Assembly: GCA_023227985.1 (NCBI GenBank)
Contig: JALOCB010000006.1
Location: 2,631 to 66,630 of the forward strand
Origin: Candidatus Omnitrophota bacterium
Lineage (GTDB): Bacteria; Omnitrophota; Gorgyraeia; Gygaellales; Profunditerraquicolaceae
Length of the DNA: 64,000 bases
Direction of reading: 5' to 3'
The notes under the pieces are model-generated. The model had not been told where the DNA came from and ran no database searches. It saw nothing but the letters and a program-made list of their open reading frames with translations. Every line of letters starts with the position of its first letter. The stretch's first letter is position 1. A program made the position numbers and the translations under genes. This document shows positions 1 through 36,390 of the stretch, in pieces.

Positions 1-144
1 CTTGTTCTTGCCGGTAAAAAACGGGTGGCACTTCGAACAGATCTCTACGCGGATGTTCGGTTTGGTCGAGCGGGTATGAATGGTCTCCCCGCAGGCGCAA
101 ACTATGGTACAGTCTTTATAACCAGGATGGATCTTGTCTTTCAT
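1..144 (-). CDS. rpmE: 50S ribosomal protein L31, N-terminal part; the gene runs off the left edge of the window
   Basis: Not in the ORF track because it is truncated. The reverse complement of 1..144 reads [48 protein letters not shown]. This matches the L31 signature (CxC...[10 protein letters not shown] zinc ribbon). The start ATG is complementary to 142..144, with an AAGGAG SD 8 nt upstream. Confidence 0.85.
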
Positions 145-240
145 TTCAGTTCTCCTTAATGAGCGGATTGCTTATGGAGCACTAGCCTATATTCTCTGCG
201 ACATAAGCAATAGGCCCTTGGCCGTCCGCGAATTAACCCC
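145..240 (-). promoter_or_regulatory. Conserved structured 5' leader, copy A, upstream of rpmE
   Basis: It shares sequence blocks with the glgA leader at 3525..3615: ctccttaatgagc, cttatggagc, gcgacataag and gcgaattaa(c/t)cccc. The spacing to the ATG is identical (motif begins 8 nt after the start codon on the plus strand). Stem arms ttgcttatg (168..176) and cataagcaa (202..210) enclose a 25-nt loop. Confidence 0.6.
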
Positions 241-293
241 GGAGCATTGATTTGCCCGCTGACTTTGCGGACAAGCCTGCCGGGGGCACAACT

Positions 294-1565
294 TTATTTC
301 TGGTTCATCGATCCCAAGAAATCCTCATTGGTTTTGGTTTTTACCAGTTTTTCGATCAGAAGCTCCATGGCTTCCACATTATTCAACTCGTTCAAGACCT
401 TGCGCAGTATCCATACCTTGGTCAACTCGTCGGGCTTCAAAAGCAGCTCTTCATGGCGGGTATTCGAGCGCTTGATGTCGATGGCCGGATATATCCTGCG
501 CTGAAAGAGGTTTCTATCCAGTTGCAGTTCCATATTTCCGGTGCCCTTGAACTCTTCGAAGATAACCTCGTCCATACGGCTGCCGGTATCAACCAGCGCC
601 GTGGCGATAATAGTCAGGCTTCCGCCCTCTTCTATGGCCCTGGCTGCCCCGAAGAAACGCTTGGGTTTTTGCAGCGCGTTGGAATCAATACCCCCGGAGA
701 GAACCTTGCCGCTGTGCGGGACTACCGAGTTGTACGCGCGGGCGAGCCTGGTGATACTGTCCAGGAGCACGACCACGTCCCTTTTATGCTCGACCAGCCT
801 TTTCGCCTTTTCCAGGACGATCTCAGCCACCTGGATATGTCTTTCCGGCGGCTCGTCGAAAGTTGAGGATATGACCTCGCCTTTTACGTGGCGCTGCATA
901 TCCGTGACTTCCTCAGGGCGCTCGTCGATCAACAGGACGATCAATATAATATCCGGATTATTCGCGGTTATGGCATTGGCGATCTTCTGCAAAAGCACTG
1001 TCTTTCCGCTGTACGGCTGGGCGACGATCAAGCCGCGCTGGCCCTTGCCCAACGGGGTAAGCAGCCCCATGATCCTGGTAGATACCTCGTTCGGGGTAGT
1101 CTCCATGTTAAAACGCTCCCTGGGATAAACCGGGGTAAGGTTATCAAAATTAACCTTTTCCTTGGCATCCTCGGGATTCTCGAAATTAACCGCCTCAACC
1201 TTCAAAAGCGCGAAATATTTCTCGCCTTCCTTGGGGGGGCGGATCTGTCCGGAAACCGTGTCGCCTGTCCTCAGATCGAATTTGCGGATCTGCGAAGGCG
1301 AGATATAAATATCGTCCGGACATGGAAGATAATTATAATTCGGCGACCTGAGGAACCCGAACCCTTCGGGAAGGATCTCAAGGACCCCCTCGCCGAACAT
1401 CAAGCCCTCTTTCTCGGCCTGCGCCTGTAAAACCTTGAAGATCAAATCCTGCTTTTTCAAACCGCTGAAGCCGCTGACGTTCAGTTCCTTAGCCAGTTTG
1501 TTCAGCTCGGTGATCTTCATTTCTTTTAGATTACTAATGTCTAACTTCTCCACAACAACCTCCAT
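294..1565 (-). CDS. rho: Transcription termination factor Rho
   Basis: The N-terminal domain ([13 protein letters not shown]...LIFKVLQAQ) is followed by an OB/RNA-binding domain. The ATPase core has a Walker A (AQPYSGKT) and the C-terminal motif [19 protein letters not shown]. The true start is probably the MKITEL methionine at about 1520, which would remove the overlap with coaE. Confidence 0.93.
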
Positions 1566-2155
1566 ATTAGCGCTACTTGTTTTCTGGTTTTCTCAATTGT
1601 GCCGCTGTTATCTATTACAAAATCCGCTAAACGGACCTTAGACTTTAAGGACAATTGCGCGCCTATCCTTTTTAAGATCTCTGGTCTAGACAGGGATGTT
1701 TTTTGGGCAAGCCTTTTCAATTGCCTGCCGCGGGAAAGAGCTACCACGATGATCTTATCAACAAGCTTATCCAGTCCTGCTTCGATAAGCAAAGGTGCGT
1801 CCACCACAACAACGTCGTTCTTGGCTGACTTGACCCTCCTTTTAACTTCGCGGATGACCGCAGGATGGGTTATCCCGCACAACCGCTTCAGCGCTTTCGG
1901 ATCGGAGAAAACGATACCGCCTAATTTTCCCCGGTCGATCGCGCCGTTGTTATTCTTCAAGATATCCCTGCCAAAGGCCTTCAAGATCTTTTTATATACC
2001 AACGTGCCTGGCGCGATAAGGCTATGGTTTATCTTATCCGCGTCAATGACGCCGGCGCCGTAACCGGCAAGGATCCCGGCTACAGTGCTTTTACCCGTGC
2101 CGAAACCGCCGGTCAACCCCAGAACGATCTTCTTATTTTCCTTTGGCTCTCTCAT
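1541..2155 (-). CDS. coaE: Dephospho-CoA kinase
   Basis: 204 aa. P-loop [12 protein letters not shown] at the N-terminus. Typical CoaE length and fold motifs. Confidence 0.85.
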
Positions 2156-3548
2156 ACAACTGCACGTATTTCTTGGCAGACTCGTTCCAGGAAAAATTGC
2201 ATTTCATCCCGCTGGCTACCAGTTCCTGCCAGGACTTCTTTGCCTTAAAGGCCTTGACCGCTTTTTTAACGGTGCTGATCAGGTCATCCTTGCTGTACTT
2301 ATCAAAGACAAAACCGTTCTTCGGCGTCACCGTATCCGCCAATCCTCCGGTCTTGAAAACCAACGGTACTGTCCCGTATTTCAGGCTGATCATCTGTCCC
2401 AAGCCGCATGGCTCGTATTTCGAAGGCATCAGGAATATATCCGATCCGGCGTATATCCGGTGAGCGAGACAATCGTCGAATTTCAAAAACAGCGATATAA
2501 CCTTAGGGTATTTCTTAACCATCGCTTCCATAACCTGGTGGTATTTCAGGTCGCCGGTCCCCAGAATGGCCATCTGCAGGTCCATCTTGCAGATCGTGTC
2601 GATCCCTGCAGCAAGGATATCAAAGCCTTTCTGCTGGGCCAGCCGCGAGACAATCCCGAATAAAGGGACATTCTGTTTAACCGGCAGCTTGCACATCTTC
2701 TGCAGGGCCTCTTTATTCTCGGCCTTGCCTTCCATATCCTTGAGCGAAAACCCTTTTACCAGGTTCTTATCGGTTGCCGGGTCCCAGATGGAATAATCCA
2801 GGCCGTTGATTATCCCGAAAAGCGAATTCCTGCGCTGGTTAAGGATGCCCTCCATCCCGAAACCGAATTCTTTGGTCTGTATCTCCTTGCTGTAGGTGTC
2901 GCTTACGGTATTTACGATATCCGAGAATACGATCCCGCCTTTAAGGACATTGACCTTATCGTAGTACTCCAGCTTATTCATGGTAAAGACATCCCAATCA
3001 AGCCCGAGCTTGGGAAATTCTTCCTTGGCGAACAAGCCCTGGTATCCGATATTATGGATGGTAAATATTGTTCTGGTCTTTTTATAAAAGTCGTCTTCGG
3101 CGTAAAGTGTTCTTAAATACACCGGGATCAAGGCTGACTGCCAGTCATGGCAATGAATGATATCCGCATTGAATTTCAGCTCCTTCAATAACTCCAGGGT
3201 CCTGCGGCTGTAATAAGCGAACCTGTCCAGATTGTCCTTATAATCTCCCGACTTATCGCCGTAAAGCTCCTGCCTGTCGAAATACTTATCGCTATCTATG
3301 AAATATACCTTTATGCCTTTACCGATCCGGGAACAGGAGATCCCTTCTTTTAATGTTTTTATTGCCGGGGCTTTCAGATCATGCACTTTTTTATACCCGG
3401 GCATGACTATGATCACTTCCTGGCCAAGTTTTTCCAGGGCTAAAGGCAACGCGCCGCCGACATCGGCCAACCCTCCGGTCTTGGCGAACGGTACTACCTC
3501 ACTTGCGCATATCGCTATCTTCATCCTGACCCTCCTTAATGAGCACAT
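2133..3548 (-). CDS. glgA: Glycogen synthase (GT5, ADP-glucose type)
   Basis: MKIAICASEVVPFAKTGGLADVGGALP is the KTGGL motif. GT-B fold with C-terminal GLGQM/FKTGGLADTV motifs. The likely true start is the MKIAI methionine at 3524. Confidence 0.9.
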   Translation of the reverse strand: MCSLRRVRMKIAICASEVVPFAKTGGLADVGGALPLALEKLGQEVIIVMPGYKKVHDLKAPAIKTLKEGISCSRIGKGIKVYFIDSDKYFDRQELYGDKSGDYKDNLDRFAYYSRRTLELLKELKFNADIIHCHDWQSALIPVYLRTLYAEDDFYKKTRTIFTIHNIGYQGLFAKEEFPKLGLDWDVFTMNKLEYYDKVNVLKGGIVFSDIVNTVSDTYSKEIQTKEFGFGMEGILNQRRNSLFGIINGLDYSIWDPATDKNLVKGFSLKDMEGKAENKEALQKMCKLPVKQNVPLFGIVSRLAQQKGFDILAAGIDTICKMDLQMAILGTGDLKYHQVMEAMVKKYPKVISLFLKFDDCLAHRIYAGSDIFLMPSKYEPCGLGQMISLKYGTVPLVFKTGGLADTVTPKNGFVFDKYSKDDLISTVKKAVKAFKAKKSWQELVASGMKCNFSWNESAKKYVQLYERAKGK

Positions 3549-3615
3549 AACTTATGGAGCTATTAATCACTTGTTACAGCGACATAAGTTATAGGTGCGA
3601 ATTAATCCCCTACGC
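3525..3615 (-). promoter_or_regulatory. Conserved structured 5' leader, copy B, upstream of glgA
   Basis: Paralogous to 145..240. Stem arms taacttatg (3548..3556) and cataagtta (3583..3591) enclose a 26-nt loop. The two arm differences relative to copy A are compensatory (t:a->a:t and g:c->a:t). An AAGGAG SD lies 8 nt before the ATG, as in copy A. Confidence 0.6.
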
Positions 3616-3670
3616 CTTATTTTGCCGTCCAGACCCATGGATTATTCAGGCAAAACAGTACGGGATAAAT

Positions 3671-6220
3671 TCAATTGATCTCCTCCATCTCCAACCAGTT
3701 CTTCCCCTGTTTGATGCTGACCCTTACCGGAACATCCAGCTCAAGGACATGCTCCATCCTCTCCCTGACCAGCCTTACGAATTCATTTATCTCGGCCTTG
3801 CCGACGTCGAAGACCAGCTCGTCGTGGATCTGCAGGATCATCCGGCCTTCCAGCTTTCTATTTTTGATCTCATTATGAATATCCACCATCGCCAGCTTGA
3901 TCAAGTCGCTGGCAGAGCCCTGTATCGGGGTGTTCACCGCCTGGCGCTGGGCAAGCATGCGGATATTCTGGTTCTTATTATTTATCTCCGGCAGATAACG
4001 GCGCCTTCCCAGTATCGTAGTCACAAAACCGTCCTCTTCCGCCTGTTTTATCTCTTTGTCGATAAGATCCTTTACTTTAGGGTATCGGGCGAAATACGCG
4101 TCGATAAAACCCTGAGCCTGGTCAGGAGGTATATTCAGGTCGCGGCTTAACCCGTAAGCGCTAAGTCCGTAAATGATCCCGAAATTTACCCGTTTGGCCG
4201 TATCGCGCATTTCATCGCTGATCGAATCCTCGGGCATGTCATAGATCAAAGACGCTGTTTTCCTATGGATATCGTCGCCCTTCCTGAACGCCTCCAGCAA
4301 AACCTCATCCTTGGACATATGCGCCAGGATCCGTAATTCTATCTGGGAATAATCAAAGGCCAGCAAAACGCTGTCTTCTGAGAAAGCGATCACCGCGGCC
4401 CGGATCTTCCTGCCCAGGTCGGTCTTAACCGGTATGTTCTGAAGATTAGGATTGCTGGAACTCAACCTTCCGGTCTCGGTGCCGGTCTGATTAAATGTGG
4501 TGTGCACCCTGCCGGTCTTATCGTCGACCAATTCCGGCAGCGCGTCAATATAAGTATTTTTAAGCTTGGTCAACTGCCGGTATTCCAAAAGCGCGGCCGG
4601 GAGCTTATGCTTACCGGCAAGCCGGTTCAAAACCTCTTCATCTGTGGACGGCCCGGTCTTGGTTTTTTTCACCACCGGCAATTTGAGCTTCTCAAAAAGG
4701 ACCTCGCGCAGCTGCTTGGGGGAATTTATATTGAACTGGCATCCGCTTATCTCATAAATGTCCGCGATAAGCTCAGCCAGCCTCTTCTCTAACTCCGAGG
4801 AAAGGTCTTTTAAAAGCTTAAGATCGAGTTTTATCCCGGTAAGCTCCATCTGCGCCAAAACCTCGACCAGGGGCATTTCCGTGCCGGTAAAAAGCTTTTC
4901 CAGTGATTTTTCTTTCAGTTGGGACTCTAATTCCGGCTTTAGCTTCTTGATAAGCTCCAACCCCGCTGCCGGCGTTATTGATCCCGGTTTTATCGACCTT
5001 TCGAAATAATCCCAGGCCAGTTCATTCAGGCCGTAATCGGATTTGGACGGGTTGGCCAGATACGCGGCGATCATTGTGTCAAAGAACAAGCCTTCTAATT
5101 CTATACCATCCCGGGCTAAGGCCAGCTTTATCTTCTTAAGGTCATGCCCGGTCTTCTTGATCGAGCTATCGGCCAATGCCGCTTTAAGGTTCGGCCCGAT
5201 ATTCTCCACCTTGAAGAACAGGCTTTTGCAGCCAAAAGCCAGATCCGACTGATCGTTGCCATAGAGAAAAAGCTCGTCCCCGGGCTTTATCAATCCTTTT
5301 ACAACCTTGTCATCAATGACCTCTATTCCTGTACCATCACCAGGCGTTTCCTGGCTGTCGCTGACAGGAAGATTTTTCAGAAGACCTTTGAATTCCAGGC
5401 GTTTAAAAAGCTTGAACAATTCCTGATAATCAGGCTCCGCGGCCTTGACCATACCCAGGTTGAAATCAAGATGCATATTATTATCCAGGCACGCCAACTC
5501 TTTATTCAGCCTGATCTGGTCGATATTAGCCATTACCGCGTCCTTGAGCTTATCCGGCTTTATATCCTCTGCCCTGGCTATCAATTCTTCGACAGAGCCG
5601 AATTCAATCAATAATCCGACGGCCTTTTTCTCGCTGACCCCTGGGATCTTGGGGATATTATCTATAGCATCGCCGCTAAGGGCGATAAGGTCCGGTATCT
5701 GGCGCGGGGCAAGCCCGAATTTCTCTCGGACCTTTTCCGTGTCATAAGTGACGCTTTCTTCTTTCTGGGGATTAAAAACCTCGACCGTTTCTTCCACCAA
5801 TTGCAGAAGGTCCTTATCGGAGCTGACCACTGTGGAATACAAGCCTTCTTCCTTAGCCTTACGGGCTAAGGTCGCGATAATATCATCCGCCTCAAAACCT
5901 TCCTGCTCGAACACCGGGATACGGTAAGCCGCCATGATCTCTTTGATGATCGGGATCTGACTGCTCAGCCCGTCGGGCATGGCCTGGCGCTGCGCCTTAT
6001 ACTCCGCGAATTTTTCCGACCTGAAGGTCTTGCGGGAAACATCGAAACAAACTGCCAGATATTGCGGTTTTTTATCCTTGATGATCTTATTCAGTATGTT
6101 CAAAAATCCGTATATCGCGTTAGTCGGCTGGCCGTAAGAAGTGGAAAGCCCGCGCACGGCGTAAAATGCCCGGTAACAAAAAGCCGTGGCATCGATCAAA
6201 AACAATCTGGGTTTAAGCAT
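3671..6220 (-). CDS. polA: DNA polymerase I
   Basis: 849 aa. N-terminal 5'-3' exonuclease (LFLIDATAFCYRAFYA) and a C-terminal family A polymerase. Motif A is DYSQIELR, motif B is RRxxKxxNFGxxYG, motif C is HDE (QIHDELVF). Confidence 0.95.
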   Translation of the reverse strand: MLKPRLFLIDATAFCYRAFYAVRGLSTSYGQPTNAIYGFLNILNKIIKDKKPQYLAVCFDVSRKTFRSEKFAEYKAQRQAMPDGLSSQIPIIKEIMAAYRIPVFEQEGFEADDIIATLARKAKEEGLYSTVVSSDKDLLQLVEETVEVFNPQKEESVTYDTEKVREKFGLAPRQIPDLIALSGDAIDNIPKIPGVSEKKAVGLLIEFGSVEELIARAEDIKPDKLKDAVMANIDQIRLNKELACLDNNMHLDFNLGMVKAAEPDYQELFKLFKRLEFKGLLKNLPVSDSQETPGDGTGIEVIDDKVVKGLIKPGDELFLYGNDQSDLAFGCKSLFFKVENIGPNLKAALADSSIKKTGHDLKKIKLALARDGIELEGLFFDTMIAAYLANPSKSDYGLNELAWDYFERSIKPGSITPAAGLELIKKLKPELESQLKEKSLEKLFTGTEMPLVEVLAQMELTGIKLDLKLLKDLSSELEKRLAELIADIYEISGCQFNINSPKQLREVLFEKLKLPVVKKTKTGPSTDEEVLNRLAGKHKLPAALLEYRQLTKLKNTYIDALPELVDDKTGRVHTTFNQTGTETGRLSSSNPNLQNIPVKTDLGRKIRAAVIAFSEDSVLLAFDYSQIELRILAHMSKDEVLLEAFRKGDDIHRKTASLIYDMPEDSISDEMRDTAKRVNFGIIYGLSAYGLSRDLNIPPDQAQGFIDAYFARYPKVKDLIDKEIKQAEEDGFVTTILGRRRYLPEINNKNQNIRMLAQRQAVNTPIQGSASDLIKLAMVDIHNEIKNRKLEGRMILQIHDELVFDVGKAEINEFVRLVRERMEHVLELDVPVRVSIKQGKNWLEMEEIN

Positions 6221-6396
6221 TATTCAAGAGGCTTATCATGGGAATAAACAGGAAGCGACGAGGGAATAGAACCACTCACTTTTTAAATTATTTTAAGGTG
6301 TCATTTCAGGTGAATCTTGAAGTAATGGCAGGTTATATCCTATGTAGATAATACCTAATTAGCGCATAGCTGTCAAGCAAAATAATTTCTCCCAAT

Positions 6397-34288: not shown

Positions 34289-36390
34289 TGCTTCCTCCTT
34301 AAGAGCATTTTTACCCGCGCCAGCAGCTTATCGCTGTCAAAAGGTTTGGTCAGGTAATCGTCCGCCCCGGCGTCAAGGCCCTGCAGCTCGCTTTCCTTAT
34401 CCTCCCTGGCGGTCAAAAGGATGACCGGGATCACCGCGGTCTCCAGTTTCGACCGTAAAGCCTTAACCTCTTCAAACCCGTTCATTTTGGGCATAGTAAC
34501 GTCGCTAATGACCAGATCCGGCTTTTCCTTATTACAGAACGCCACTGCCTCCTGACCATCCCTGGCCTTGACCACCCGATAGCCCGCGTCGGTGAGCCTT
34601 TTTTCCAGGATCTTCAGTATATCTTCCTCATCGTCTACAATAAGTATCTTTATATCCTTGCCGGCCTGCGCCGACCTAAGGACAGCTTCTTCCTCCGAGG
34701 CGGCGCCGACTATGTTGAAGATCTCTTCCAGAGTAGTGATCCCCGCGGATACTTTCTCCAGGCCTGCTCTGGCCAAAGTCTTCAGGCCGCTCTTCTTTGC
34801 CTCCGACAGAATCTCGTCTTCCGCGAACCTCTGGGCGATCATCCCCCGTATCTTTTCGCTGATCCTGAATATCTCAAAAATCGCGGTCCTGCCCAGAAAA
34901 CCGGTGAATCCGCAATAGCTGCAGCCCGAACCATGATAGAACTCCTTTATACCAAGCTGGTCTATATGGCTTTTAAATAGGCTTAACAAGTGCCCATCCG
35001 GTTGATATTTCTCTTTGCAATGCGGGCAGATCATCTTGACCAGCCTCTGGGCCACGACAAGGATCAACGCAGAAGATATCAGATACGGCTCCAGACCTAT
35101 ATCCACCAAACGGGTTATTGAGGCAACCGCGTTATTCGTATGCAGCGTGGATAATACCAGGTGCCCGGTCAAAGAAGCCTGGAAAGCCATTTCTGCTGTC
35201 TCCTTGTCCCTTATCTCGCCTATCAGGATAACATTCGGGTCCTGCCGCAGAATGCTCTTTAAGGCGTTGGCAAAAGTAAGATCCTTGACCGGATTTACCT
35301 GCATCTGGTTCAAGCCATCGATCAGATATTCTATGGGGTCTTCTATAGTAATTATATTATTTTTCTCTGTTTTAACGACATTAAGAGTGGCATAAAGAGT
35401 GGAAGTCTTGCCCGACCCTGTGGGCCCGGTGACCAGGATCAACCCTTGAGCGGCAGTGATCGCCTGTTTATAGATATCCAGATCCGGGCCTTGAAAACCC
35501 ATACTTTCCAGCCCGGTTTTTGCCGCCTGAATATCCAACAACCTCATCTCGATCTTTTCCCCGTAAAAAGTAGGTATAGTCGAGACCCGCAGATCGACCT
35601 TCCTGCCGTTGACCGATATCTTAATCCTTCCATCCTGGGGCTTGCGGTTCTCCGCGGTATCCAACTGCGCCAGGACCTTCAAACGCGCGGCCAGCGAAGA
35701 ATGCAGGCTGACCGGAAGGTCCATAATATTGCGCAGGTCGCCGTCTATCCTGTACCTGACCTTGACCGTCTTCTCCTGAGACTCGATATGGATATCGCTG
35801 GCCCTTTGTTTTACCGCGTCGCTCAAAATAAGGTTGCAAATCTTTACTGCCGGGACATCTTCGGATCTTTGCGCCCGCTCATCCAAAAAGAATTCAGACG
35901 CGTCTTCGGTAACGATCTCGACCTTATCCGCTCCCATGACATTCTTCAGGATGTCATAAATATTATCCTCCGCCTGATAATATTTCTTAATGTGATTGTT
36001 TATCTCGCTCTTGGCGGCCAGTAGCGGCTTTACGCTCATTCCCGTGTTCAACCTTATATCATCCAGGGCCATAATATCCTGGGGATCGCTCATCGCCAAT
36101 ACCAGCGCGTCACCCTCCTTGCGCAAGGGCAATATCCCGTAACGCATAGCCAGTTCATACGGGACCAGCCTGACAGCAGAAGGGTCTATTGTTTCCTTGC
36201 TCAACTGCGTAACAGGCATATTGAATATCTTGGATGAAGCGCTGACCAGCTGCTCCTCCGCGATAAAACCCATCTCCACTAATAATTCCTGAAGCGGCTT
36301 CTTAGCGCCGATGCGCTTGATCCTGGCGTCGTTAAGCTGTTCCGCCGTTATGAGCCCTTCCCTGATAAGCTCGTCGATCAAAACAGTCAT
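34285..36390 (-). CDS. GspE/PilB-family secretion ATPase fused to a C-terminal receiver (REC) domain
   Basis: 701 aa. T2SE N-terminal domain. Walker A is GPTGSGKT. Asp and His boxes are ILIGEIRD and LVLSTLHTN. A tetracysteine motif is CPHC...GSGCSYC. The C-terminal receiver (aa ~583-701) is ILIVDDEED...LVISDVTMPKMNG...YLTKP. Confidence 0.85.
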   Translation of the reverse strand: MTVLIDELIREGLITAEQLNDARIKRIGAKKPLQELLVEMGFIAEEQLVSASSKIFNMPVTQLSKETIDPSAVRLVPYELAMRYGILPLRKEGDALVLAMSDPQDIMALDDIRLNTGMSVKPLLAAKSEINNHIKKYYQAEDNIYDILKNVMGADKVEIVTEDASEFFLDERAQRSEDVPAVKICNLILSDAVKQRASDIHIESQEKTVKVRYRIDGDLRNIMDLPVSLHSSLAARLKVLAQLDTAENRKPQDGRIKISVNGRKVDLRVSTIPTFYGEKIEMRLLDIQAAKTGLESMGFQGPDLDIYKQAITAAQGLILVTGPTGSGKTSTLYATLNVVKTEKNNIITIEDPIEYLIDGLNQMQVNPVKDLTFANALKSILRQDPNVILIGEIRDKETAEMAFQASLTGHLVLSTLHTNNAVASITRLVDIGLEPYLISSALILVVAQRLVKMICPHCKEKYQPDGHLLSLFKSHIDQLGIKEFYHGSGCSYCGFTGFLGRTAIFEIFRISEKIRGMIAQRFAEDEILSEAKKSGLKTLARAGLEKVSAGITTLEEIFNIVGAASEEEAVLRSAQAGKDIKILIVDDEEDILKILEKRLTDAGYRVVKARDGQEAVAFCNKEKPDLVISDVTMPKMNGFEEVKALRSKLETAVIPVILLTAREDKESELQGLDAGADDYLTKPFDSDKLLARVKMLLRRKQ

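Follow-up and report, generated by a model that had tools for sequence, protein, structure and literature searches.

A stretch of 64,000 nucleotides from a Candidatus Omnitrophota genome (contig JALOCB010000006.1, positions 2,631 to 66,630; hereafter the window) contains two leaders, one in front of rpmE (copy A) and one in front of glgA (copy B), which resemble each other and can both be folded into hairpins. The question raised by this locus is whether the two leaders constitute a regulatory element dedicated to these genes, as an earlier note on the sequence had proposed, or belong to something of wider occurrence. The analysis favours the latter: both are copies of a modular hairpin repeat, probably of the REP/BIME type (repetitive extragenic palindromes) or of the type of miniature inverted-repeat transposable elements (MITEs), which is intergenic, multicopy, widespread in Omnitrophota and, it seems, sometimes co-opted by its host. 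A riboswitch in front of rpmE and glgA is not supported. The Omnitrophota are uncultured, ultra-small and often host-dependent bacteria, and to our knowledge nothing is known of their gene-expression signals.

The likeness of copies A and B is far beyond chance. The four sequence blocks described before are all present, in the same order, in both leaders, and the distance from GGAG to the start codon ATG is 7 nt in both. The stems TTGCTTATG/CATAAGCAA (copy A) and TAACTTATG/CATAAGTTA (copy B) enclose 25 and 26 nt, respectively, which begin with TCGC and end with GCTC; they differ from each other at two positions, both compensated, and each is longer by one A-T pair than had been noted.

Fold, architecture and distribution of the element

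Alignment of 46 copies gave a common fold composed of an outer helix P0 (TTAAT/ATTAA), a UC/UC loop, P1 (GCAG/CTGC), a variable hairpin P2 that is sometimes absent, P3 (10 bp), a second UC/UC loop and an apical GC/GC stem. In these copies 96.0% of the cells were paired, compared to 29-45% in controls with slid partners, and double changes were found at 14 pairs with 126 compensated cells; none of 500 shuffles came up to the observed value. When 150 modules from 77 genomes were considered, P1 and P0 were also seen to covary (P0 variants being TTAAT/ATTAA, TAAGT/ACTTA, TAAAT/ATTTA, TCAAAT/ATTTGA and TTCAAT/ATTGAA), and the hairpin feet T-TC-G...C-TC-A were essentially invariant. G-U pairs occupied only 1.7% of the cells, and base pairing was kept in every copy of the family. 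The covariation in both sets thus bears out the claim that pairing is under selection, and it extends well beyond the two stem positions from which this had been concluded. An origin of the UC/UC loops as 2-bp target duplications, left by nested hairpin insertion, found no support, as no empty TTAATTCATTAA site was present in the right context.

To define the family, one genome per species was scanned with the pattern GGNTTAATTCGC-N48-78-GCTCATTAA, which has 20 specified bases and does not require a Shine-Dalgarno sequence (SD). At least 120 loci matched exactly, almost all of them from Omnitrophota; by our own arithmetic about 34 matches are expected by chance over the whole 596-Gb collection. 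Among the matches listed, three lacked the fold (L085, L109 and L130), scoring at most 20 bits with a covariance model of the family. The fold-bearing matches came from metagenome-assembled genomes (MAGs), one single-cell genome and one complete genome, with record titles reading Candidatus Omnitrophota or Omnitrophica, or unspecific MAG labels such as 'uncultured Planctomycetia'; the carriers include Ca. Velamenicoccus archaeovorus LiM (NZ_CP019384; L119) and Ca. Zapsychrus. Several genomes gave three to six loci each, and the covariance model revealed about 100 additional copies within the 8-kb loci. A wider search for copies, which the earlier note had called for, therefore yielded many of them, across Omnitrophota and before all kinds of genes.

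The repeat family was not found in Rfam or in the searchable literature. The window gave no match at the gathering score in Rfam 15, no Rfam 15 family (the leaders of L31 and other ribosomal proteins included) matched any unit in L059, L098 or L100 at E<=0.1, and full-text literature searches that covered papers on Omnitrophota returned no description of such an element. Among 2.9 million viral contigs the sole pattern match was L134 (IMGVR_UViG_3300020047_009671:4692-4776), which scored 18 bits and is probably due to chance; with this single match, spread by phages is unlikely.

The aligned module turned out to be the right-hand part of a larger unit. Full units consist of a left module, a central GC-rich hairpin and a right module, adjacent to each other without linkers, and measure 138-282 nt (median 191). 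The right module has the consensus GGGN-TTAAT-TC-G[P1-P2-P3]C-TC-ATTAA, while the left module begins with (T)AA/GTGAGG (the slash marking the unit boundary) or ATGAAG and in many loci reads (T)AA/GTGAGG-CC[..ACTTATG-GAGC..GCGA-CATAAGT..]GG-CCGAACTT. The left module is approximately the reverse complement of the right one, and the ends RTGAG... and ...CTCAT give the unit the terminal inverted repeats and the two-fold symmetry of a MITE; the unit likewise shows the inverted palindromic pairs around a central motif that characterise REP/BIME/REPIN families. The 3' arm of the central hairpin ends in the GGGN at the beginning of what had been regarded as the leader, and its N covaries with the 5' arm (ATCCC...GGGAT, ACCCC...GGGGT). 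The complete left-central-right architecture was recovered with a strict pattern at 47 of 122 anchors, and in partial form at many more.

The boundaries of the units coincide with those of the genes. The triplet preceding the left end was TAA in 27 of the 47 units, and in 19 of 39 it was the stop codon of the upstream co-directional ORF (open reading frame); at the other end all full units finish with TAA, by construction of the search pattern. A unit takes up the space between two genes, from the stop codon of the first (in most cases TAA) to the SD or ATG of the second. In the window, both elements reach further upstream than the coordinates first given for the two leaders, with a central hairpin that extends to the stop codons of rho and polA, respectively. 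A small coupling ORF running from the left RTG to the right TAA was rejected: the RTGAG frame of the one unit that was followed through ends after three codons, for which reason the units seem to have no through-ORF.

Placement among genes and turnover between relatives

Out of 125 pattern matches, 76 lay in sense orientation between co-directional genes and about 10 in antisense; this strong association with gene starts is a part of the earlier interpretation that stands. The downstream ORF began either 10-16 nt past TCATTAA, with AGGAGG in between, or 0-3 nt past it. The genes themselves have little in common. Sixty-four downstream proteins fell into 59 clusters, and the 62 that were scanned carried 107 Pfam families, none of them common to more than two proteins; examples are gyrA, gyrB, dnaB, mreB, groEL, an EF-Tu GTP-binding-domain protein, L22, S8, type II/IV secretion ATPases and GMP synthase. 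The functionally coherent gene set expected downstream of a riboswitch was thus not present among these 62 proteins. The earlier view of a functional RNA structure rather than a decayed DNA repeat was partly right: the hairpin is conserved and compensated, but it is also a repeat dispersed between unrelated genes.

Individual loci illustrate how closely the units follow gene borders, and how freely they are distributed. In L059 (Omnitrophica CG1_02_40_15, 100-1300, minus strand) each of the three gaps of the spc operon genes rplE-rpsN-rpsH-rplF holds a complete unit of about 190 nt, which begins at the stop codon TAA with GTGAGGAC; the units end in GCTCATTAATG, GCTCATTCAAAGAGGGAG...ATG and GCTCATTAAAATG, and in the first of these endings the ATG of rpsN overlaps the TAA with which the unit closes. 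The ribBA start of L100 and L045 is directly preceded by a unit in reverse orientation. The L100 locus contains an FMN (flavin mononucleotide) riboswitch (RF00050, 88 bits) with its terminator at 1824-1991 (plus strand), followed by the reverse unit at 2027-2107 and the SD and ATG of ribBA, and L045 has the same order of unit and ribBA with similar upstream sequence, although an FMN riboswitch was not confirmed there with Rfam. The position of the unit between the FMN riboswitch and ribBA indicates that the repeat is tolerated inside a riboswitch-controlled leader. Elsewhere, several units in both orientations occupy a 1.1-kb gene-free stretch (L098, 3900-5030), and some units adjoin tRNA genes or true terminators of the flanking genes.

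Two of these loci have peculiarities of their own. Between the units of L098 a promoter of textbook form (TTGACA-N17-TATATT) stands ahead of a short hairpin and its T-tract; this could be a small RNA gene. In L037 (496-760) the right module occurs twice in identical form at a distance of 180 nt, and behind each of the two stands a copy of a tRNA gene 3' end (AAATCCCCCTCTCCGCACCA); the pair represents a tandem duplication or an integration scar at the tRNA.

The gene order polA-glgA-coaE-rho-rpmE-prfA is kept in relatives of the window genome, which allowed orthologous junctions to be compared. L005 (92% identity) has both elements with different but fully paired stems, TGATTTACG/CGTAAATCA before glgA, with a 9-bp extra hairpin at the P2 position, and TAGCTTATG/CATAAGCTA before rpmE. 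In L007, L009, L011, L012 and L013 (76-80% GlgA identity) there was no copy before rpmE or glgA, and the covariance model detected none elsewhere in those loci; their rho-rpmE spacers are 9-18 nt long or of unrelated sequence, and polA and glgA are 52-61 nt apart or overlap. The empty rho-rpmE site of L009 and L013 reads TAAGGAGG, the junctions being CAGTAAGGAGG and CAATAAGGAGG, respectively, where the window and L107 have TAA[unit]TAAGGAG. A TAA target-site duplication with empty sites in relatives, as expected of a MITE, is therefore apparent for copy A, while copy B is not a clean case.

A GlgA scan of metagenomes returned only two close relatives. The closest relative found, L143 (93% GlgA identity), has an empty polA-glgA junction (TAAGATGGAGGGTCAGGATG) and keeps the rpmE unit, whose central hairpin shows compensatory changes. 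In this unit a simple 8-bp hairpin (GCCCGCCA..TGGCGGGC) replaces P1-P2-P3 between unchanged GGGGTTAATTC and TCATTAAGGAGAACTGAAATG; the same short hairpin type occurs in L098. The glgA units of the window and L005 differ throughout and, judged from their sequences, look like independent arrivals or the result of replacement. Close relatives thus differ by gains, losses and exchanges of units. A dispersed repeat or MITE, which the earlier note had named as the outcome that would overturn its model, is essentially what was found, except that the copies are not placed at random and that their pairing is kept.

These observations bear directly on the model of that note, in which a riboswitch-like or protein-binding cis-regulator of rpmE and glgA hides the SD by pairing with gCUCC. 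The stem is indeed conserved and compensated, the element abuts the SD, and in the predicted fold of copy A an upstream CUCC pairs with GGAG. In copy B, however, the predicted fold leaves the SD free of the element's hairpin, the complementarity of CUCC to GGAG amounts to 4 nt only, and CUCC is part of the UC/UC loop found throughout the family, also in copies that no SD follows. The folding energies of the leaders are also ordinary compared to shuffled sequences (z -1.3 for copy A and -0.1 for copy B) and no Rfam family matches. The downstream genes lack coherence, orthologous rpmE and glgA genes of relatives are not preceded by the element, and in L143 an unrelated hairpin takes the place of the interior of the rpmE copy. 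The model is largely refuted, and we regard it as very improbable.

Some further features of the region were recorded. L011 (79% identity) carries in its rho-rpmE spacer (6151-6315) an AT-rich inverted repeat of another kind (aaagtcaaaagta...tacttttaactt), which has no relation to the present family; this suggests that the junction attracts other palindromic insertions as well. A very long ORF (2807-3453 aa, with matches to HEAT-repeat and phosphoglucomutase domains) precedes polA in the window genome and in the 92% relative (window >6220 on the minus strand; L001:1-6935; L005:1-2011), and is not found at that position in relatives of 76-77% identity. GlgA homologues of 469-478 aa were considered as cases of an N-terminal extension read from the element; this was ruled out, the extra length being internal.

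The two copies in the window

Both copies lie on the minus strand (copy A at 240..156, copy B at 3610..3536), among the genes polA (3671-6220), glgA (2133-3524), coaE, rho (294-1565) and rpmE, the last of which begins at 144 and runs past the edge of the window. The GlgA and Rho proteins are identical to those of the Candidatus Omnitrophota MAG GCA_028711865.1. A covariance model built from copies of other genomes recognised both window copies (E 3e-19 and 2e-11, respectively; bit scores in Table 1) and gave no further match in the 64-kb window at E<=10; an apparent third copy at 35210-35266 was a chance match within coding sequence. The window copies are 'central + right' half-units that begin at the stop codons of rho and polA. 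Their parts are listed in Table 1.

Table 1. Positions of the parts of both half-units and of the adjoining gene signals in the window (SD, Shine-Dalgarno sequence)
Feature	Position	Strand	Basis or remark
Copy A, right module (Y-shaped hairpin)	156..240	-	sequence; covariance-model match 148-242(-) at 81.8 bits; predicted fold
Copy A, P0	TTAAT 236-232 with ATTAA 160-156	-	predicted fold
Copy A, UC/UC loop	231-230 with 162-161	-	predicted fold
Copy A, P1	GCGG 229-226 with CCGC 166-163	-	predicted fold
Copy A, P2	GGCC 223-220 with GGCC 216-213	-	predicted fold
Copy A, P3	211-202 with 176-167	-	predicted fold
Copy A, inner UC/UC loop, then GC/GC	201-200 with 178-177	-	predicted fold
Copy A, central GC-rich hairpin (CCCCCGG...CCGGGG; inner hairpin TTGTCCGC/GCGGGCAA)	237..293	-	whole-unit predicted fold
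rho stop codon TAA, left boundary of unit A	294..296	-	recurs at right boundary 158-156 directly before GGAG
rpmE SD GGAG (155-152), 7-nt spacer, start codon ATG (144-142)	142..155	-	same SD and spacing in element-free relatives
Copy B, right module, without P2	3536..3610	-	sequence; covariance-model match 3528-3611(-) at 52.6 bits; predicted fold
Copy B, P0	TTAAT 3605-3601 with ATTAA 3540-3536	-	predicted fold
Copy B, P1	GCAC 3598-3595 with GTGC 3546-3543	-	predicted fold
Copy B, P3; inner UC/UC loop, then GC/GC	3592-3583 with 3556-3547	-	predicted fold
Copy B, central hairpin (GAATTTATCCCGTACTGTTTTGCC...GGCAAAATAAGGCGTAGGGGATTAATTC)	3605..3670	-	starts directly at polA stop codon TGA (3673-3671)
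glgA SD GGAGG (3535-3531), spacer, start codon ATG (3524-3522)	3522..3535	-	called gene in GCA_028711865.1 begins at ATG 3524-3522

The right module of copy A is delimited by GGGGTTAATTCGC...GCTCATTAA and that of copy B by GGGGATTAATTCGC...GCTCATTAA. From G240 to A156, copy A runs GGGGTTAATTCGC GGAC GGCCaagGGCC TA TTGCTTATG TCGC..25-nt..GCTC CATAAGCAA T CCGC TCATTAA, followed by GGAG, 7 nt and ATG. Copy B, from G3610 to A3536, has the same order of blocks with the stem TAACTTATG/CATAAGTTA, followed by GGAG(G), 7 nt and ATG; it lacks the 13-nt mini-hairpin (GGCCaagGGCC) present in copy A only. The motif GGACGGC(C)AA had been pointed out in both leaders at different positions, and is found at 227..218 and 3629..3621. 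These two sites are not homologous, since the motif falls on the P1/P2 junction in copy A and on the 3' arm of the upstream central hairpin in copy B.

The central hairpin of copy A spans the gap between the rho stop codon and the right module, and its orthologues in L143 and L005 show compensatory changes. The predicted folds of the whole units have energies of -54.8 (A) and -46.0 kcal/mol (B). The stretch comprising SD, spacer and start codon of rpmE is native flanking sequence outside the repeat. On the glgA side, L143 has the same start-region sequence, GGAGGGTCAGGATG, at its empty site. The first ATG that the ORF finder assigned to glgA (3548, MCSLRRVRM...) falls inside the repeat (ATGTGCTCATTAAGGAGG) and is not the start, so that gene callers choosing the longest ORF would append 8 false residues to glgA (window 3525-3548). 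In the mechanism we propose, the half-units would be co-transcribed with polA-glgA-coaE-rho-rpmE and form a Y-shaped mRNA stem ending at the SD. Their effect on glgA and rpmE would at most be a generic one, on mRNA stability, processing or ribosome access, and would not involve sensing of a ligand or specificity for a gene.

Mobility, selection and known counterparts

The two strands of the modules are not equivalent. According to predicted folding, the right module is more stable in antisense in 111 of 122 copies, by 4.1 kcal/mol on average (p=6e-18); for the left module it is the sense strand that folds more stably, in 40 of 47. The more stable, GA-type strand has tandem G-A in its internal loops and, as hairpin loops, cGAAg (18 cases), cGTAAg (11) and cGCAg (5), with TTC being rare. 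Such a strand asymmetry would not be shown by a leader optimised for the mRNA of rpmE or glgA. In about one fifth of the typical modules (e.g. L028, L032, L047, L072, L074, L094 and L095) P2 is GCTTCGC, the other strand thus reading GCGAAGC, a sequence known to form a DNA mini-hairpin of exceptional stability. Taken with the cGAAg loops, it may point to a stage as single-stranded DNA. The ratio of G-U to A-C mismatches, considered as an indicator of the folding strand, was 39 to 22 (p=0.04) in pattern-selected right modules; the opposite-type modules had been picked by a model that itself favours G-U.

The same asymmetry also enters into an explanation of the unit as a bidirectional terminator or insulator, in which the central GC hairpin and UUAAUU end transcripts from either side, with a GA-type auxiliary hairpin before each. 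The two-fold symmetry of the unit agrees with this, as do the order on each strand (the stabler GA-type module, then the GC-rich hairpin, then a U/A-rich tail) and the location of some units beside tRNA genes or true terminators. However, units stand between consecutive ribosomal-protein genes of one operon, and one stands between the terminator of an FMN riboswitch and its ORF. There is no promoter-like sequence for a restart, the tail after the central hairpin contains only 3-5 U in 8 nt, and a consensus scan found no intrinsic terminator at the window copies (142-296 and 3522-3673; the tail is UUAAUUCG). We therefore consider termination an improbable function of the family.

With regard to transcription starts, a scan of window positions 1-4000, both units included, found no sigma-70-like promoter. 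The possibility that the element itself contains such a promoter (TTAATT...TAYRAY, or TTGACA in the central stem) was also rejected, as the spacing varies from 6 to >25 nt with the length of P2 and the upstream logo lacks a -35 box.

The strongest competitor of the mobile-repeat interpretation is a device for punctuation or translation, i.e. a generic RNA element that is selected by the host, bound between cistrons by a conserved RNase or RNA-binding protein, and spread by rare duplication. The left module would protect the upstream 3' end, the central duplex would be cut, and the right module would cap the downstream 5' end or position the SD and AUG. Such a role agrees with the exact placement from stop codon to SD or ATG, the biased orientation and the occurrence of units within the spc operon of ribosomal proteins. 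As is usual for functional RNAs, short single-stranded stretches stay the same where the stems covary; two copies from one genome differ as much as two from separate genomes, and three abutting hairpins without linkers would bring the stop and start codons close to each other. The correlation of an internal SD with an abutting ATG (Fisher p=0.005, see below) points the same way. On the other hand, the right module folds consistently less well in the mRNA than on the opposite strand, and G-U pairs are rare (about 1.7%). Either orientation works before a gene, as in the case of ribBA, units pile up in gene-free DNA, close relatives lack units at the same junctions, and at 93% protein identity the interior has been swapped for another hairpin type. 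We judge such punctuation possible but clearly short of probable; it is not mutually exclusive with the mobile-repeat interpretation.

An extension of this idea, which we put forward only tentatively, is that the units are a phylum-specific gene-expression device in which an Omnitrophota protein, or else the ribosome, would recognise the U-GA-G/C-GA-A (UC/UC) feet, which are invariant, and so punctuate polycistronic mRNAs. The compact fold would bring the upstream stop codon, or an SD ahead of P3, next to the downstream start, and the next gene would be translated through a hairpin-bridged ribosome-binding site or by termination-reinitiation. In a variant, the hairpin feet could be sites for a structure-specific recombinase that swaps hairpin cassettes.

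Several findings weigh against a mobile repeat. The orientation bias relative to genes is about 76 to 10. In a subfamily with a purine-rich strand in place of P2, GGAG(G) stands at the end of this strand in 10 of 12 copies with an abutting ATG, and in none of the 6 with an external SD; over all copies, an internal SD-like GGAG is present in 10 of 23 with an abutting ATG, compared to 7 of 58 (the Fisher test above). That the internal GGAG tracks the abutting ATG in this subfamily argues for a role in translation, and in the copies concerned P3 appears, from the sequence, to bridge the SD and the AUG. Short unpaired blocks are conserved over about 90 species, which is unusual for a selfish repeat. 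Module identity has a median of 0.49 within genomes and 0.47 between them, few pairs surpass 85%, and there are only about four non-tandem within-genome pairs of at least 0.83 identity, so that the near-identical families typical of MITEs were not found. Finally, the boundary of copy B, with TGA on the left and TAA on the right, is not a clean TAA duplication, and no transposase (RAYT included) or recombinase partner or autonomous element was noticed in the loci of up to 8 kb, in which no systematic search for one was made.

The divergence of copies within a genome is unlike a recent MITE or REPIN burst and fits old copies under structural selection. The orientation bias and the subfamily with its own SD suggest that selection on translation shapes the survival of copies and that some have been co-opted. 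We still favour the mobile repeat with occasional co-option as the probable explanation. The element would spread by transposition or recombination by way of the invariant T-TC-G...C-TC-A hairpin foot.

The consequences are not confined to the window. Structured units of 140-280 nt fill gaps between stop and start codons, even between ribosomal-protein genes, and some copies hold the only SD of the next gene. The family should accordingly affect operon expression, mRNA stability and gene calling throughout the phylum, as demonstrated by the ORF finder that ran glgA into the repeat. It removes a supposed rpmE/glgA co-regulator as a false lead and supplies a ready covariance model for the annotation of Omnitrophota genomes. 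As a new and unusually well-behaved dispersed repeat under structural selection, it also bears on whether REP-like elements are parasites or tools of their hosts.

Among known systems, the REP/BIME/REPIN families of Proteobacteria are repetitive extragenic palindromes that are mobilised by RAYT (Y1) transposases and affect mRNA stability and the translation of neighbouring genes. The Omnitrophota repeat resembles them in being a multicopy extragenic imperfect palindrome in which two inverted units flank a central motif, and in lying just past stop codons inside operons, where it would be co-transcribed, with hairpins that contain a conserved mismatch. It differs in that its module is a 70-100-nt three-way-junction hairpin with two UC/UC (GA/GA) loops, in contrast to the 20-40-nt stem of REP, and in that its ends read RTGAG and have no 5' GTAG motif. 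Moreover, its copies within a genome are highly diverged with compensated stems and form no master-sequence cluster, its core is common to the whole phylum, and it abuts the downstream SD or ATG.

With MITEs such as Correia/NEMIS of Neisseria and ERIC/IRU of enterobacteria, the family shares a length of 100-200 bp built on inverted repeats, the duplication of a short A/T-rich target (TAA in the present case), polymorphic presence between relatives and long mRNA hairpins with orientation-dependent effects. Unlike in these elements, conservation lies in the hairpin feet and junctions of each module and not in the terminal inverted repeats alone, the internal hairpins are exchangeable cassettes, and near-identical bursts are lacking; we know of no parent insertion sequence. 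The MIRU repeats of Mycobacterium are similar in their location exactly between stop and next start in operons, with boundaries overlapping both codons, but they are direct tandem repeats that encode small coupling ORFs and not hairpins. The integron attC sites are likewise imperfect palindromes, conserved in structure and variable in sequence, between a stop codon and the next ORF, and have the same succession of outer helix, unpaired central spacer, inner helix and variable terminal structure, together with a strand asymmetry. The ends of the Omnitrophota element, GGGNTTAATTCG...CTCATTAA, do not fit RYYYAAC/GTTRRRY, however, and its flanks are not cassettes but syntenic housekeeping genes (rho, rpmE, polA, glgA and ribosomal-protein genes).

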